Shown here: one piece after another, positions 1 through 6,900 of the stretch | Layout of the letters: every line of letters starts with the position of its first letter | Position numbering within the stretch: position 1 is the first letter of the stretch | Origin: a virus | Direction: 5' to 3' (one strand) | Virus record (IMG/VR): IMGVR_UViG_3300044647_001247 | Span: 45,820-109,819 of that record | DNA length: 64,000 bases | Translations under genes and position numbers: made by a program | Notes under the pieces: model-generated | The model's database searches: none | What the model was told of the DNA's origin: nothing | The model's input: the letters and a program-made list of their open reading frames with translations, nothing else

Positions 1-264
1 ATATTTGATTTAGGTACAACTAATAAAACATTTGATATTACAATTGATGGTACATCTACTGATTTTGCAAATATTTATAAAATTGCAGTTTTTTATGGAA
101 AACCATGGTCTTCAAATGGTGTAGGTGCAGGTAGTAGTAGTCTTGTTTATGATTATACTTATCCTTCTACTTCAGGTTTAACTGTAACAATTAATTATAA
201 TTACACTTATAATAGCAGTGTTGGTCAATATTTATATGTTGTTGTTTATACAACTTGTACTTAA
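1..264 (+). CDS. 3' end of a probable virion/fibre protein (partial)
   Basis: Frame 1 is open from base 1 to TAA at 262-264. Thr/Ser/Tyr-rich beta-type sequence ending ...VVYTTCT. Not in the ORF track. Confidence 0.7.
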   Translation: MFDLGTTNKTFDITIDGTSTDFANIYKIAVFYGKPWSSNGVGAGSSSLVYDYTYPSTSGLTVTINYNYTYNSSVGQYLYVVVYTTCT

Positions 265-278
265 TTAAAATACTATTT

Positions 279-572
279 ATGGCAATACAGGTAAAAGTTA
301 CACCAGGTGCGTCAAGTTATGAATATGATTTTGATGATTCTGGTTATAGCACTGGTTCTCAAGCATGTACTAATTATGCAGCATTAACAAGTGTATATGC
401 TGCTGAGGCAACAGGTGACCTTGTCACTCAATTTTATACAAATTCTGGATTAACTACCACATTTTCTGGTACATCTTCAACTTTCTATGCTTGGACAAGA
501 GTAGGAGCAGGTACTACTTATCGTGGACAAGTGAATTCATCAGGAGTTACAAGTTTAATTAGCAATTGTTAA
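279..572 (+). CDS. small Thr/Ser-rich virion-associated protein
   Basis: ATG at 279 preferred over the TTG at 255. Beta-rich, ends ...GVTSLISNC. Confidence 0.6.
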   Translation: MAIQVKVTPGASSYEYDFDDSGYSTGSQACTNYAALTSVYAAEATGDLVTQFYTNSGLTTTFSGTSSTFYAWTRVGAGTTYRGQVNSSGVTSLISNC

Positions 573-631
573 ATTCGTATTATTTTTAACATATGTTAAT
601 AACTTTTACAACATTACATTACATCTATTAA

Positions 632-639
632 TATCTTTG
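632..639 (+). promoter_or_regulatory. Bacteroidota sigma-A -7 element (TATCTTTG)
   Basis: Matches TAnnTTTG, 18 nt upstream of ATG 658. Confidence 0.5.
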
Positions 640-657
640 AGTTACAAAACCACATTT

Positions 658-1152
658 ATGAAAAAAATTACATTAAAACTAGTTGAGTTCTACAATCTTG
701 ACGCAGAGCTGAATGGTATAGTTGATCAAACAACAGGTGCTAAAAAGTCTTTTGGTCTTCTAGGAGAGAAGCTTTCTCTTGTTACTAAGTATTGGCTTAC
801 TGATCTTGCTAAAAAAGTAGCTGCTGAAAAAGTTGCAATAGAAGAACTTAGAAACGAACTTATTAAAAAATATGGTAAAGAAGAAAATGGGAATATTACA
901 ATCCCCATGTTAATAGATGATGATTCTAATGATGAAGAAACAGCAAGTAAAAAATTAAATCCTGATTTTCAACAGTTTGAAAAAGAATTTAATGAGCTTT
1001 TACAAACAGAAAAAGAAGTTGAATATAAACCAATTAAGCTTTCTGAATTAGAAAAGGTTGAAACATCAGAAAACTATGCTACATTTTTCAAACTCTTAAA
1101 TGAAGGAATCTCAGAAAATCCTGATAATGTTGTACCAATGACGCCTAGATAA
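658..1152 (+). CDS. conserved helical phage protein (DUF1617-like)
   Basis: ATG at 658 (MKKITLKL). Pattern LVTKYWL...RNELIKKYG...EFNELL recalled from phage tail-region proteins. Confidence 0.55.
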   Translation: MKKITLKLVEFYNLDAELNGIVDQTTGAKKSFGLLGEKLSLVTKYWLTDLAKKVAAEKVAIEELRNELIKKYGKEENGNITIPMLIDDDSNDEETASKKLNPDFQQFEKEFNELLQTEKEVEYKPIKLSELEKVETSENYATFFKLLNEGISENPDNVVPMTPR

Positions 1153-1175
1153 TGTGTGGGTTTTAGTATTTATTA

Positions 1176-1206
1176 AAGCACTCTCTTAAAATGAGGGTGC
1201 TTTTTT
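1176..1206 (+). terminator. intrinsic terminator
   Basis: AAAGCACTCTC-TTAAAAT-GAGGGTGCTTT followed by a T run, just after stop 1152. Confidence 0.8.
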
Positions 1207-1226
1207 ATTTTGGTACTATCTGTAAA

Positions 1227-1247
1227 ATTTTGTATATTATAGTGTAG
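1227..1247 (+). promoter_or_regulatory. putative late promoter motif, copy 1
   Basis: ATTTTGTATATTATAGTGTAG, 20/21 identical to 60722-60742. Lies after a terminator and about 26 nt before ATG 1274. Confidence 0.65.
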
Positions 1248-1273
1248 AGTGATTCTAATTTAAACTATAATAT

Positions 1274-1576
1274 ATGATTTTATTTTCATTTATTTCAGAC
1301 AGGTATAAATATACATTTCCTCAAGCTATTGCTGAGGTTGTTTCTGTTACAAAATCAAAATATGTAATGGCAGTGCCTCCTGGCTCTCAGCAACCTATTG
1401 AAGGTCAAGTGAATTTATATGCAAATTTTAATATATATGCTAGCCTTAATTCAAAAAATCAAGGTGGACAACCTATAGAATCTATTTCTAAAAACTATTT
1501 GTGTGATGAATTTGATGAAGCATTTACTAAAGCAGAAGAACTGTTTTTAGATGAAGTGGGTGGTACATCTGTTTAA
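1274..1576 (+). CDS. hypothetical protein (possible fibre-associated/chaperone)
   Basis: 100-aa ORF heading the fibre operon. Confidence 0.6.
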   Translation: MILFSFISDRYKYTFPQAIAEVVSVTKSKYVMAVPPGSQQPIEGQVNLYANFNIYASLNSKNQGGQPIESISKNYLCDEFDEAFTKAEELFLDEVGGTSV

Positions 1577-1596
1577 TTTAATATATCTGATATAAT

Positions 1597-2823
1597 ATGT
1601 TACCTAAATCTAATGCTGCTAGTCAGGGTTGTATTCCTGTTTCTTCAAATTGTGTCGTATGGCAGGGACCTGATCTTTCCTGTCTTAACCTCTGCAACGG
1701 TGACACTGTTTCTGATGTAGTTTACAAGGTAGCTACAGACTTATGCACTATTAAGTCCACTCTGGATTTGACAAGCTTAGACCTCACTTGTTTGGTCTCT
1801 TTTTGCTCTTCTGTAAATCCGGCACCCACTACAAAAACCCTGTCAGCAGTATTAGATTTTATTATAGATAAGGTTTGCTGTTTACAAGCTACTATTCCTG
1901 GAAGTCCAGGATCTACTTATACAGAACCCACTCTCACTCTTCCTACATGTTTACAATATGTAGATGGTGGTACAGGACTTACAGTAACACAACTTGTTCA
2001 TAATCAATACACTCTGCGAATAGCTAATCAGTATTGCTCTTTAAAAGCCACTGTTGATTCTCAAACAACTACACTTACTAGTCACAACGCACGAATTACA
2101 GCATTAGAAAATGCTCCTGCAATAACTCTTCCTACTGTTACACCTAATTGCATTCTTCCTAGTGTTCCTACACAAATGAACGTTGTATTAGATAAGTTAG
2201 AAGAAGAATATTGTCTTCTTAGAACAGCTTTAGGATCTAACACTCAAATTACAGCAGCTGCTTCTCAGCAGTGTACCGCATTAAGTGCTGCATCAGCACT
2301 TAGCCAAGCTGGTGCAATGTCATCTATAACTGGTTGGAATTCAACTGTTGCTAACATGTCACAAGCTATGCAGAATCTTTGGATCACTGTATGTGATATG
2401 AGAGCTGTTATAGCTGATCTTAAAAACTGCTGTGGTCAAACAGATTGTTCTGGATTTATTCTTGAATACAGTGCTACAGCTAATGGTGCCCGTCAGGAAG
2501 TATATCTTGACTTTAACCCAACCACTATTATTCCTTCAGGCTTTATTCAGGCTGTTCAAAACACTACAGTTGTTATTTCTGATGGAACTAATAGTAAGTC
2601 TTTTGTAATTAACATTGTAACAGAAGCTGCTAATGTCAGTCCTTATACATTTATTGTAGCTGGTGGAAGTGTAGTGGGAACTCCTCTTAATAGCTCAATG
2701 CCATACACTGTTGTTGTTAATGCATTCATATCTAAGAGTAATAATGTATGTAATAAATCTGTAACTAAAAATATCACTGTACCTTGTCCAATTGTGACTA
2801 GTGTAAGTGCAACCTTAATATAA
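1597..2823 (+). CDS. Cys-rich virion fibre/base protein
   Basis: Many Cys (CVVWQGPDLSCLNLC, two CC pairs), a short coiled coil (HNARITALEN), a C-terminal beta domain, and the ending CPIVTSVSATLI. Confidence 0.65.
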   Translation: MLPKSNAASQGCIPVSSNCVVWQGPDLSCLNLCNGDTVSDVVYKVATDLCTIKSTLDLTSLDLTCLVSFCSSVNPAPTTKTLSAVLDFIIDKVCCLQATIPGSPGSTYTEPTLTLPTCLQYVDGGTGLTVTQLVHNQYTLRIANQYCSLKATVDSQTTTLTSHNARITALENAPAITLPTVTPNCILPSVPTQMNVVLDKLEEEYCLLRTALGSNTQITAAASQQCTALSAASALSQAGAMSSITGWNSTVANMSQAMQNLWITVCDMRAVIADLKNCCGQTDCSGFILEYSATANGARQEVYLDFNPTTIIPSGFIQAVQNTTVVISDGTNSKSFVINIVTEAANVSPYTFIVAGGSVVGTPLNSSMPYTVVVNAFISKSNNVCNKSVTKNITVPCPIVTSVSATLI

Positions 2824-2824
2824 T

Positions 2825-3370
2825 ATGAATATTACATTAACATGGACTCCAGGTGCTGGTGCATCAAATCAAGATGTTCAGTATAAGTTATCTACTGAGC
2901 CAACTATTTGGACTACACATTCTAGTGTAGCTGCTGGTGTTGCTACAGCAACTATAAATGGTTTGTTAGATAATAGAATATATGATTTTAGAGTGGTTAC
3001 AAACTGTGCAGGAGGGATATCAACATCTGCTGCTACACAACAAATTAACATTATATGTCCAACTGTCACTACCAATCCATCAAGTACTACCATTGGTTTT
3101 AGCTTTCCTGAAATTGGTGGTTCTATAACAGGTTACACTGCTAAGATATTTGACACTACAGGAACTACATTAATATCTTCTCAAACACCAGCTGGTACCA
3201 CTACAAGAACAGGATCATTCACTAGTTTAACCGCTAGTACAAATTATAAGATACGTATAGAAATAGCTGCAGGGTCTTTTTCTAAAACAAACTGTTCTTT
3301 TATAAGTGTTACGACCACTGCAAGTCCCACTTGTAATCCACCCACTGGTGTTACAGCTACCCTAGTATAA
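2825..3370 (+). CDS. tandem fibronectin type III fibre protein
   Basis: FN3 signatures ITLTWTP...YKL...INGLLDNRIYDFRV and FTSLTASTNYKIRI. Ends CNPPTGVTATLV. Confidence 0.8.
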   Translation: MNITLTWTPGAGASNQDVQYKLSTEPTIWTTHSSVAAGVATATINGLLDNRIYDFRVVTNCAGGISTSAATQQINIICPTVTTNPSSTTIGFSFPEIGGSITGYTAKIFDTTGTTLISSQTPAGTTTRTGSFTSLTASTNYKIRIEIAAGSFSKTNCSFISVTTTASPTCNPPTGVTATLV

Positions 3371-3396
3371 TTAAAAAACATTAAATAATACACACT

Positions 3397-4050
3397 ATGT
3401 CTTGCGGATGCACACATACACCTTGTGAACCTTGTTGCTCTAGTTACGGATCATCTGTAAGCTATGTTCTTCCAGATTGTCCTGGTGGAGAACCTTGTGA
3501 TGAAATAAGTGAAGCACCTTGTGTTTTATATAAGGGACCTAATCTTCCTGCTCTTGGTATAAGTAATAATGATAGACTCATCACTATATTAACAAAACTT
3601 CATAAAGTGCTGAATGGTGTCATAACACCAACTATTCCATTAACTACTTATACAGCAACAAACACTACAACGCTACCTTCTATTCCTACATTTAATATTA
3701 GTTATTTAGGACTTGGTCCTGTTTATACATCAACAGCAGGAGCAACAAGTTCTTCAACCACAATAACAGTGGGTTCTACAACTAACCTTGTAATAGGTAT
3801 GGTGGTAGAAGTTACTGCTGGTGTAGGTGCGTTTGCTACAAACACACTTGTTGTAACTATTCCTAGTGCAACTACATTTACAGTTTCTCAAGTTCCTAGT
3901 ACCCCTCTTTCTGGAGGAGCTACTGTTGTTACAGGAACGGGTTCTACACACACTATATTTAGTTTAAAAGTGGTAAAAAATATTCCTCAATCTTTTAAAG
4001 CGTTTACAGGTTCTGTAGTAACAGACTCTGGAACAGGAACAGTTGTATAA
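3397..4050 (+). CDS. Cys-rich virion protein with beta-rich C-terminal module
   Basis: MSCGC...CEPCC N-terminus. CVLYKGPNLPALGI resembles CVVWQGPDLSCLNL of 1597..2823. Confidence 0.6.
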   Translation: MSCGCTHTPCEPCCSSYGSSVSYVLPDCPGGEPCDEISEAPCVLYKGPNLPALGISNNDRLITILTKLHKVLNGVITPTIPLTTYTATNTTTLPSIPTFNISYLGLGPVYTSTAGATSSSTTITVGSTTNLVIGMVVEVTAGVGAFATNTLVVTIPSATTFTVSQVPSTPLSGGATVVTGTGSTHTIFSLKVVKNIPQSFKAFTGSVVTDSGTGTVV

Positions 4051-4061
4051 AATTATAATAT

Positions 4062-4490
4062 ATGGCTTCTTTGTGCAATACATATAAAACCTTACAAGTT
4101 GCTTTTACAGCACCGGCAGTATCTCCTGCTAATGGATATTTAGTTAAATGGAGAATAGTTGGTGATACAAACTGGAATACAGTTACTCAAAATCAAAATC
4201 CCATCACTATAGCAGGTGTTCCTTCTTGTTATAATATTGAAGGTAGTATACAAGCTGATTGCGGTGGAGGAAACTTTGGTTCTCCTATAGTGTTTGCAAT
4301 ATCTTCAAGTTCTAATATTTGCAGACAAGTCACTCTATTACAGACAGCAGTTTATTATTATGTTGCTTGTAATAGTTCTGAACAAGTGCAAATTATAAAT
4401 AATGCTGCCACTCCACAAACAATCTGTATAAAAGATGGTACATTAAGTGGTGGAACATTCACTGATTTAAATACAAGTTGTAATATATAA
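4062..4490 (+). CDS. FN3-like fibre protein
   Basis: LQVAFTAP..PANGYLVKWR...PITIAG...EGSIQADCGGG. Paralogous to the N-terminus of 4498..5421. Confidence 0.7.
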   Translation: MASLCNTYKTLQVAFTAPAVSPANGYLVKWRIVGDTNWNTVTQNQNPITIAGVPSCYNIEGSIQADCGGGNFGSPIVFAISSSSNICRQVTLLQTAVYYYVACNSSEQVQIINNAATPQTICIKDGTLSGGTFTDLNTSCNI

Positions 4491-4497
4491 TTAAGTT

Positions 4498-5421
4498 ATG
4501 GCCACATTAAGTGTATCGTTTACTCCTCCTGGAACACCCCCTGCAAATGGTTATAGGGTGCAATACTGGCTTGCATCAGATCCTTCTACTATATTTACAG
4601 TGTCACCCAATCCTACATCATCTCCTGTTACTATTACAGGTCTTACTGGAACTTTTTATCAAGGTACTATAGAAGCTGATTGTGGTGGGGGGTTATATTC
4701 TTCTTTAAATACTTTTTCAGCCAATACAATAACAGGAGATCCTTGTTTATCAGGAAATACACTTGCTAATGCAAACTGTTCTCTTACTGAAACTAAAACA
4801 TTTACACTATCTACAGGTTTTTCAACAACTGTAAATTTATATGGTTTTTATTATTCAGGAACAGGAATAAGAACTATATCAGGAAGACTGTTAAATAACA
4901 GTAATGCTTTAATCCAAGAGTTTACTTATACGCAAACAGGGGCTAGTGTAGGAACGACTAGTCCTAGTTTTTATACACTTACTAATATATCAGGATCTGC
5001 TGTAAGTTATAAACTTCAAATTGACACTGTAATTTGCACCAACGGTACAGGTGTTGGAGCCATGACTGCTAGTGGTTGCACATCTACAAGTCCTTCTGTA
5101 GTAGTTAATAACGCTACATTCTCTGGTTTAACTATATCAGCAGTAACTGTTAATAGTGTTGCTGTAACATATGAAACAGGTGTTAACTTACCTATTGCAT
5201 ATTCAGGTTTAGGTTATTTTAGAACTACACAAGTGGGAACATTTAATATAGCTGTTTCATATAGCAATCCTGCTGTTTCTAGTCCAAGAGCTATACGTGT
5301 AACAGGTAGTAATGGTGTTTCTCAAACACAAACTTCTCAAGCAACAAGTGCAACACTTACATTTAGTAACGTAGTGGTAAACACTTCACAATCTGTACAG
5401 ATAGCTATTGTGCAGAGTTAA
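4498..5421 (+). CDS. FN3-like fibre/tip protein with additional Ig-like domains
   Basis: LSVSFTPP..PANGYRVQY...PVTITGL...GTIEADCGGG, then Thr/Ser-rich beta domains. Confidence 0.7.
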   Translation: MATLSVSFTPPGTPPANGYRVQYWLASDPSTIFTVSPNPTSSPVTITGLTGTFYQGTIEADCGGGLYSSLNTFSANTITGDPCLSGNTLANANCSLTETKTFTLSTGFSTTVNLYGFYYSGTGIRTISGRLLNNSNALIQEFTYTQTGASVGTTSPSFYTLTNISGSAVSYKLQIDTVICTNGTGVGAMTASGCTSTSPSVVVNNATFSGLTISAVTVNSVAVTYETGVNLPIAYSGLGYFRTTQVGTFNIAVSYSNPAVSSPRAIRVTGSNGVSQTQTSQATSATLTFSNVVVNTSQSVQIAIVQS

Positions 5422-5460
5422 AATATAAAGTCAGTGGTTTTGTTGGTTTACCCACACGAC

Positions 5461-5496
5461 AGGTCTCGGTGTTTCTACATTGAGACCTTAATTTTA
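5461..5496 (+). terminator. hairpin/terminator after the fibre operon
   Basis: AGGTCTCGGTGT-TTCT-ACATTGAGACCT, a 12-bp stem with two G-U pairs and an imperfect T tail. Confidence 0.6.
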
Positions 5497-5556
5497 TTAA
5501 ACTGTTTATAAAATGTGCATAAAATATGTTAGAGTTATATAATATAATCTAACTTT

Positions 5557-6900
5557 ATGCACCATATACCAAATACTAAAATTATGTCTTTAATTAATCA
5601 GGTGTATGGTTCTCTCAGATGGAAAAAAACTGATGAGTTCTGTGCGACAAAGTTAGGTGTTTCATTACAGAAATACCAAGAAATCAAAAAACAAATCTCA
5701 GAAACAAAACAACTGCTACAAGAAGAATTAGATTCTAGTCTTATAGAGTTTGTAGGTAAAAGAATGCTAGAACTTATTGATGACGAAGGAATTAAGAATG
5801 AGTATGTTTTAGATATGAAATACAATCTACAAGATGCTATACTTTCTGAGAAAGAAAAGGTGATAGAATTTAGAGAAAATTTAGATGACTGCACTGCTGA
5901 AATTAAAGGAATAGCTTTTGTAGAACCAAAAAGTCCTGAAGAAATAATAAGGATTTTAAAAATTGACACTACAAAATGGAAGCTTAGCTCCTATTGGAAT
6001 AAGCAACATAAAGACCATTGGCTTATTTCTGCCATGGTTACTCAAAAGACTTTAGAAGAAAAAGATTTTTTAAAGGAAGTGATTGAAAACTTCCAGCCAA
6101 GTTATACACCAGTTGCAGAGGTGCATTTGAATGACACATTCGTTTTACCTACAGTGGGGGTTTTGAGTATTCAAGACCTTCACTTTGGTAAAGAAGGTAA
6201 TGATGGAGTGGCTGATGACTTTAGAGAAGCTATTAGTAATTTAGTATTAAAGGCTTATAAAAGTCATAAACTTGATAAAATCATTTATGTATTTGGTGGT
6301 GATCTTTTAAACATGGATAGTTTTCATGGATCTACTACAAAGGGTACACCTGTAGATAATGATTTAAGAGCACAAGATGCTTATAAAATAGCATTTGATT
6401 CATTATACTGGAGTGTAAACTTTGTAAAACAATTTTGTAATAATCTCCATGTAGTGTATCTACCTGGTAATCATGATAGACTTAGTAGCTATCATATGGC
6501 TCATGCTCTTTCCAAATGTTTTAATACAGCTTCTAATATCATATTTGATGTTGAATATGCTGAAAGAAAAGTTATTACTTACGGTGATAACTTTTTTGCT
6601 TTTGAGCATGGTGATATTAGCTCAAAAAATACTCCTTTAGTATATGCAACAGAATTTCCAAAACAGTGGGGTGCAACAAATTATAGAACTTGTTACACCG
6701 GTCACTGGCACCATAAGAAAACAACTCAGTATATATCTGAAAATGAAATACACGGATTTGCCATTAAACATCTTCCTTCTCTCTCTAAACCTGACTACTG
6801 GCATTACCATAACAAATATACAGGTGCTAAACGCCAAGCTATTATTGAAATCCATGATCAGAGGAAAGGTAAAATATCTGAGTTTGTATATACAGCGTAA
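5557..6900 (+). CDS. calcineurin-like metallophosphoesterase with N-terminal HTH/coiled region
   Basis: Motifs DLHFG, GGDLLN, PGNHD, FEHGD, TGHWHH. Start may be 5584. Confidence 0.85.
   Translation: MHHIPNTKIMSLINQVYGSLRWKKTDEFCATKLGVSLQKYQEIKKQISETKQLLQEELDSSLIEFVGKRMLELIDDEGIKNEYVLDMKYNLQDAILSEKEKVIEFRENLDDCTAEIKGIAFVEPKSPEEIIRILKIDTTKWKLSSYWNKQHKDHWLISAMVTQKTLEEKDFLKEVIENFQPSYTPVAEVHLNDTFVLPTVGVLSIQDLHFGKEGNDGVADDFREAISNLVLKAYKSHKLDKIIYVFGGDLLNMDSFHGSTTKGTPVDNDLRAQDAYKIAFDSLYWSVNFVKQFCNNLHVVYLPGNHDRLSSYHMAHALSKCFNTASNIIFDVEYAERKVITYGDNFFAFEHGDISSKNTPLVYATEFPKQWGATNYRTCYTGHWHHKKTTQYISENEIHGFAIKHLPSLSKPDYWHYHNKYTGAKRQAIIEIHDQRKGKISEFVYTA

Follow-up and report, generated by a model that had tools for sequence, protein, structure and literature searches.

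We analysed a 64,000-nucleotide (nt) stretch of DNA (hereafter the window; G+C ~32%) that forms a portion of the 109.8-kb record of an uncultured virus. The genes at 1597-5421 probably encode a modular phage fibre or appendage whose joints are composite fibronectin type III (FN3) domains, each formed from two polypeptides. Three open reading frames (ORFs) on the plus strand, the strand of all protein features described below, are central to this proposal: a 408-amino-acid (aa) base protein (1597-2823), a 181-aa adaptor (2825-3370) and a 307-aa tip protein (4498-5421). As judged by sequence comparison, the gene boundary between partners makes a clean nick in an FN3 domain, and the split pattern is not due to chance. 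We infer both the wiring of the chains and their location on the virion.

The ORFs were re-read, and their termini, the position of the terminal Cys and the Cys motifs after strand F were all as the first-pass annotation of this DNA had described them. The base protein, which consists of a Cys-rich N-terminal region, a central region and a C-terminal beta domain, terminates in CPIVTSVSATLI, and the adaptor terminates in CNPPTGVTATLV; counted back from the stop, the Cys is residue 12 in both. The two tails, C397-I408 of the base protein (donor strand 1, 2785-2820) and C170-V181 of the adaptor (donor strand 2, 3332-3367), each read as an orphan FN3 strand A, the first with a pre-A Cys; the base protein would be a donor only. 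The adaptor starts with MNITLTWTP and the 307-aa protein with MATLSVSFTPP. The Pfam fn3 profile (PF00041; curated cut-off, 25 bits) matched residues 3-68 of the adaptor at profile positions 16-78 of 84 (44.9 bits) and residues 1-81 of the 307-aa protein from position 15 of 84 (26.8 bits). Because the matches begin at positions 16 and 15, strand A is absent from both N-termini. The earlier claim that the ORFs start at strand B thus held for these two proteins; it was less clean for a third candidate acceptor, a 142-aa protein with an N-terminal extension. Post-strand-F Cys motifs were present in all three (TNCAGG in the adaptor, ADCGGG in the 142-aa protein and ADCGGG in the 307-aa protein). 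Candidate acceptors beginning at strand B are therefore adaptor domain 1 (residues 1-77, 2825-3055; post-F Cys61 at 3005-3007) and the head of the 307-aa protein (residues 1-78, 4498-4731; post-F Cys62 at 4681-4683). Adaptor domain 2 (residues 78-166, 3056-3322) is a complete FN3 with its own pre-A Cys78 and Cys157, and it was the only one with strands A to G in one chain. The adaptor contains exactly four Cys residues (61, 78, 157 and 170).

The split is conserved, as had been proposed. The family of the base protein comprised at least 1127 clusters at E<=1e-5. Its best 120 homologues were 354-418 aa long, with 119 of them at 403-418 aa; all 120 carried the tail motif, and in 117 the stop was located exactly 11 residues past the Cys. 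The adaptor family comprised 94 clusters at 90% identity, nearly all of 178-193 aa and with identities down to 39%. Its 87 aligned homologues start at strand B, and M1, W7, C61, C170, P173 and A178 were invariant. In both donor strands the Cys, Pro and Ala were invariant while their codons varied synonymously (41 DNA versions for donor strand 1 and 41-42 distinct versions across the two tails), indicating that selection acts on the tail peptide. The first-pass annotation had named single fused ORFs as an outcome that would contradict it. No fused form was found among the 408-aa homologues, which spanned 224-714 aa, and no fused adaptor orthologue was found in a search aimed at longer proteins. 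A survey of homologous gene clusters recovered the same termini.

An uncut version of the domain was found by the search with the 307-aa head in a few large proteins, mostly of >600 residues. In these copies, a strand of the type Cys-x-x-Pro-Thr-Gly-Leu, resembling the adaptor tail, precedes strand B. In 34 of 39 uncut FN3 repeats, a pre-A Cys motif was followed by a post-F Cys motif, and the two Cys were 71-73 residues apart in the printed examples. When the pieces were joined across the gene boundary, the spacing was 72 residues for the 408-aa tail plus the adaptor and 73 residues for the adaptor tail plus the 307-aa head. A bacterial FN3 subtype is defined by pre-A and post-F Cys residues ~72 residues apart, and here this pair was found only across two chains.

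We then scored the split pieces with a profile made from 52 uncut domains, with 73 tails, all from the same genome, as controls. Alone, adaptor domain 1 and the 307-aa head aligned only from profile position 18-19; prepending the 408-aa tail pushed the alignment start from position 19 to 2. Adaptor domain 1 scored 52.3 bits alone, 56.4 bits with the 408-aa tail and 62.8 bits with the adaptor tail, versus a mean of 52.8 bits (standard deviation 0.8, maximum 56.1) with control tails. The 307-aa head scored 52.3 bits alone, 58.5 bits with the 408-aa tail and 65.3 bits with the adaptor tail; its controls had a mean of 53.1 bits (standard deviation 1.0, maximum 55.7). The adaptor tail thus added 10-13 bits on either acceptor. 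The 142-aa protein scored 31.5 bits alone (from position 15), 32.0 bits with the 408-aa tail and 37.8 bits (+6.3) with the adaptor tail, while control tails gave a mean of 31.2 bits and a maximum of 34.0. Two other C-termini were tried as donor strands, that of the 142-aa protein and that of a 217-aa protein encoded in the same unit (SGTGT[IV]V); neither produced a gain in this test, and both were rejected.

Structural models were consistent with the profile results. An AlphaFold2 (AF2) monomer of the adaptor, built from an 87-row alignment, had an overall predicted local distance difference test (pLDDT) score of 95.9. Domain 1 was modelled with six strands (residues 3-6, 13-22, 30-36, 41-44, 53-61 and 64-73) and without strand A, whereas domain 2 had a strand A at residues 82-85. 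From residue 164 onwards the tail had no secondary structure and was not folded back, and the confidence dropped to 74. A six-stranded first domain is what the first-pass annotation had expected of this monomer. The nearest solved folds were extended tandem FN3 pairs (TMq up to 0.69). Given this extended layout and a linker of just four residues from the final strand to C170, domain 1 of the same chain should lie beyond the reach of the tail. In the model, C61 and C170 had no partner within reach.

We also predicted the complex of the adaptor with residues 1-82 of the 307-aa protein, using an alignment of its own for each chain and three controls. The score was 0.74 (0.73, 0.76 and 0.74 in the individual runs), versus 0.00 for the best control; the 0.74 mark was reached by 58 of 80 solved complexes and by 2 of 110 mismatched pairs. 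The runs agreed in at least 92% of contacts, and the pLDDT of the partner was at least 85. Only residues 168-181 of the adaptor took part in the predicted interface, lying against strands B, F and G of the head and including C62 there. The predicted pairs 179:5, 177:7, 176:8 and 174:9 correspond to an antiparallel pairing of strand A with strand B. Strand insertion had been anticipated for this pair, and the model reproduced it with the post-F Cys in the interface. The prediction supports, without showing, that the adaptor tail inserts as strand A of the 307-aa head.

The acceptor head is shared by a large group of tip proteins. An exhaustive search with the 307-aa head returned at least 200 clusters at 50% identity, and in 126 of the best 150 relatives, strand B starts no more than a few residues from the N-terminus. 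The relatives were 75-571 aa long; the head was kept, and the C-terminal parts were unrelated. The corresponding variable part of the 307-aa protein (4732-5421) is presumed to bind the host. C62 was the only invariant column among 127 tip proteins. An odd number of Cys residues was present in 95 of 126 tips, and the single-domain proteins of 75-80 aa had exactly one.

The 142-aa protein (4062-4490) is a possible further acceptor. It opens with MASLCNTYKTLQVAFTAP and contains an FN3-like head at residues ~7-80 without strand A (Cys67 at 4260-4262), followed by a small Cys-rich C-terminal part. Its identity to the 307-aa head was 41% across 73 residues; a Pfam fn3 search of this protein gave no match. 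Seven Cys residues were present in all 14 of its homologues. In this class, a Cys in the N-terminal extension was always accompanied by a Cys in the EF loop (VPSC), and the sequences suggest that the head has another staple, an intramolecular one, at its opposite pole. If it is an acceptor, the 142-aa protein is a less clean one than the adaptor and the 307-aa protein. A proposal that the C-terminal Cys of the 142-aa protein and the start of the 307-aa protein together mimic the N-terminus of the 142-aa protein was rejected, as the 307-aa class has no accompanying EF-loop Cys.

The Cys pair may also lock the joint as an inter-chain disulfide. Invariant Cys residues on both sides, the matching Cys-to-Cys spacing and the odd Cys counts of the tips support this lock. 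It was part of the first-pass annotation; the evidence for it, which comes from sequence, fits, and our confidence in it is lower than that in the composite FN3 joints.

We propose the following assembly. The gene boundary would fall in the A-B turn; the last 12 residues of the upstream partner would be a strand A opening with a Cys, and the downstream partner would start as a six-stranded FN3 whose edge is open and whose free Cys directly follows strand F. Once synthesised, the tail would insert antiparallel to strand B of the acceptor and produce a normal seven-stranded domain, and in a virion exposed to oxidising conditions the two Cys residues would be placed for an inter-chain disulfide. 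The base protein would donate its tail to adaptor domain 1, a wiring favoured by the 1-nt stop-start coupling of the two genes. The adaptor tail would in turn be donated to a strand-A-less tip head, that of the 307-aa protein and possibly that of the 142-aa protein. Tip proteins would have a common head and interchangeable C-terminal domains. For the joint between the base protein and the adaptor, we argue from gene adjacency, the 1-nt coupling, the conserved stop position, the Cys spacing and a modest profile gain.

Several points weigh against this proposal. The gain of the 408-aa tail on adaptor domain 1 was small (56.4 bits versus the control maximum of 56.1). In one related locus (L005), the last 24 residues of the upstream protein and the adaptor were read through in frame, with the TAA stop translated as Q, and folded as one chain; the donor had a pLDDT of <50 and formed no strand, in a region without alignment cover. 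A Pfam search of the same read-through extended a Pur_ac_phosph_N match back to profile position 3, a weak sign because the score was no higher. The high score of the complex prediction may reflect a likeness to abundant intact FN3 structures or the memory of the model, and its controls are silent on the preference of either tail for a given head. Against two donor tails, this genome has three candidate acceptors, and relatives have up to four acceptors, with one or two tips plus the 142-aa class. As for the lock, the cytoplasm in which virion proteins are made is reducing, and a disulfide could form only at a late stage. The intradomain disulfide of the uncut homologues is itself presumed, and a sequence search for a solved structure of the Cys-bearing bacterial FN3 subtype found none.

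Self-chaining of the adaptor, as the first-pass annotation had proposed, is an alternative that we regard as unlikely. The adaptor tail would enter domain 1 of the next adaptor, the base protein would start the chain and the tips would cap it, giving a fibre of variable length. The adaptor owns both a socket and a plug, and in the profile test its tail suited domain 1 of the same protein (62.8 versus 52.3 bits). The tail also covaried with its own groove when the rest of the protein was controlled for (partial Mantel r 0.48, p 0.0005, 24 loci), and the association was retained within one clade (r 0.49, p 0.0175). In addition, a relative (L063) has a 93-aa one-domain adaptor that consists of just a socket, a plug and two Cys residues. 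However, this covariation lies within one gene and mostly reflects two clades, it was not significant in the second clade, and partial Mantel tests are known to over-call. The tail-to-head assignments by the same method were inconsistent between the clades, and only the adaptor tail against its own groove stood out. Phage fibres are usually of fixed length, and the adaptor tail is also predicted to suit the tip head. It is doubtful that a self-polymerising, disulfide-stapled shaft of the 181-aa or 93-aa protein builds a pilus-like bead chain of variable length. If it did, one virion population would carry fibres that differ in reach and receptor specificity, and each chain would be capped by whichever acceptor-only tip arrives.

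We give little credence to a second alternative, that no inter-chain complementation takes place. The heads would then be stable alone, and the tails would be linkers, recombination scars or segments that bind something else. AF2 does fold domain 1 confidently without strand A, module boundaries in phage fibres are recombination hot spots, and acceptors outnumber donors here. A scar, however, would not retain invariant Cys, Pro and Ala residues under purifying selection, share one end point in 117 of 120 homologues or restore the exact Cys-to-Cys spacing of the uncut domains. Also against this alternative are the free post-F Cys, which is the only invariant column in the 127 tips, and the complex prediction, which sets the tail as strand A.

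The stop-start junction between the base protein and the adaptor (TAA-T-ATG, 2821-2827) bears on the remaining alternatives. Among 50 readable loci, the two genes were separated by 1 nt, in the +1 frame, in 44; there was a 6-nt in-frame gap in two, an ATGA overlap in two, a 13-nt gap in one and a TAATG overlap in one. The last sense codon was also variable (ATA, GTA, TCA, ACA, ACC or GAA). On a simple reading of these sequences, the junction would reflect termination-reinitiation coupling. The split is conserved across many loci, which excludes a sequencing error. A programmed +1 frameshift or read-through that would yield a fused protein with an intact FN3 is hardly credible: it would account for the +1 relation at the 1-nt junctions, and the fused reading is a complete domain, but the junction geometry and the frame relation vary, the variable last codon leaves no slippery site, the adaptor keeps its own start codon at every locus, and what follows the second donor tail, after 26 nt, is a non-FN3 gene.

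The proposed composite joints are encoded within a six-gene unit (1274-5421) flanked by strong terminator-like hairpins. The upstream hairpin (1175-1203) has an 11-pair stem followed by a T run. The downstream hairpin (5461-5488, plus strand) has a 12-pair stem followed by a T run and ends the unit. The scan for such hairpins gave 8 sites versus 2.8 expected. The genes at 1597-5421 are located directly 3' of genes for a major head protein, a minor tail protein and a 1083-aa tail fibre. A further conserved member of the unit encodes a 217-aa Cys-rich protein (3397-4050), which matched phrog_6005, a virion structural protein, and shares a 27-residue N-terminal motif with the base protein (E 4e-4). 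Its relatives all end in SGTGT[IV]V or a close variant. The gene order, namely base, adaptor, 217-aa class, 142-aa class, tip(s) and exonuclease, was kept in 18 viral loci. A metagenome scan found 45 further adaptor-encoding loci, and the same order was recovered in metagenome loci. A search of a protein atlas with the base protein matched only viral clusters without names, and the window had no match in a phage record collection at the DNA or protein level.

Variants of the arrangement were also observed among relatives. At L063:4992-5273, the 93-aa protein is a strand-A-less FN3 plus a donor tail with exactly two Cys residues, and it follows a 405-aa base protein with the usual 1-nt junction. 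At L062:4146-6843, in a distant relative (38% identity to the adaptor), a 465-aa donor ends in CPSISNFTATIN and, 7 bases on, a 430-aa acceptor starts with MATINTSW; by its sequence the nick is the same, the partners differ and a small adaptor is absent. Adaptor homologues of 271 and 227 aa (L032:2281-3096, L028 and L015:5001-5684) have an extra domain after the donor strand, which is then internal. In L015, a 349-aa tip protein finishes with the same small Cys-rich C-terminal module.

Two observations were made outside the unit. Very large ORFs lie in a row at 9449-44597 of the window (1532, 981, 1045, 1000, 1103, 3834 and 2193 aa), and the first of them matched virion structural protein families. 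Small upstream ORFs (window 1-572, and in L002-L019) have a Cys at most three residues from the stop (TTCT, SNC, VVDC, YCY and APC before the stop codon), and these residues may form a further set of terminal Cys links.

If the composite joints exist as proposed, a large environmental phage group uses one universal joint, a 12-residue plug in a six-stranded FN3 socket, to mount interchangeable receptor-binding tips. Such joints would explain how tips are swapped by recombination without disturbing fibre assembly. They would also provide a rule for recognising tips in metagenomes: the ORF starts from FN3 strand B, and one of its Cys residues is unpaired. A natural, small and covalently lockable tag-and-catcher pair would also become available to protein engineers and for the retargeting of laboratory phages.

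Known systems resemble these joints in part. In Type V pili, a C-terminal donor strand fills the groove left by the missing N-terminal strand of the next subunit, head to tail (PMC13655056). The topology of these pili (FimA, Mfa1) is like that proposed here, with a C-terminal donor and a missing N-terminal strand. Type V pili occur in Bacteroidota. Their groove is produced by gingipain cleavage and strand exchange, whereas here it would be open by gene structure. Because the ORFs begin directly at strand B, there is no N-terminal strand to cleave and no room for a signal or lipobox. Type V pilins are made as lipoprotein precursors, have a two-domain fold of another kind and are joined non-covalently, whereas here the domain is FN3, the joint would likely carry a disulfide, and several kinds of phage protein are involved. 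No Pfam or PHROGs match to Type V pilin families was found, and no sequence relation was seen.

Subunits of chaperone-usher pili lack strand G, the last of the fold, and an N-terminal extension acts as the donor (PMC13655056). These pili (Fim, Pap) share with the present system an incomplete immunoglobulin (Ig)-like fold that is completed by a neighbour, as well as a set of base, shaft and tip. The missing strand and the donor end are the reverse of those here, where strand A is missing and the donor is C-terminal. Chaperone-usher pili require a periplasmic chaperone and an usher; searches of Pfam and PHROGs with the ten ORFs of window 1-6900 gave no match to chaperone or usher families.

Among phages, a comparable adhesion device of solved structure is the baseplate tripod of Lactococcus phage Tuc2009. 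There, a 25-residue C-terminal extension of BppU completes the C-terminal beta-sandwich sheet of BppA, and the composite domain resembles a titin domain (PMC4742702). Tuc2009 thus adds a beta-hairpin to a sandwich, whereas here an FN3 appears to be cut cleanly between strands A and B. The passages on this joint mention no Cys pair (PMC4742702), whereas here Cys residues are present on both sides. No homology to Tuc2009 was detected here. To our knowledge, Tuc2009 has no interchangeable family that shares an acceptor head and no conserved stop position.

In SpyTag/SpyCatcher, an engineered split of CnaB2, one strand reassembles with the remainder of an Ig-like domain, after which an isopeptide bond holds the two together. 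That pair is artificial, whereas the split described here is natural and the proposed bond is a disulfide. In phage SPP1, an FN3 is added to the tail tube protein (gp17.1*) by frameshifting, which would call for a slippery site and a fixed frame; the 50 loci had five junction geometries and variable last codons. A conserved FN3 nick used as a phage fibre joint was not found in the literature searched, a body from which subscription journals were mostly absent. The logic of the joint is that of donor-strand complementation, and the split FN3 appears to be a general form of it rather than a new category. Phage adhesion devices would then have two kinds of composite-domain joint, this one and that of Tuc2009, and the parallel to pilus assembly would need neither chaperone nor protease.

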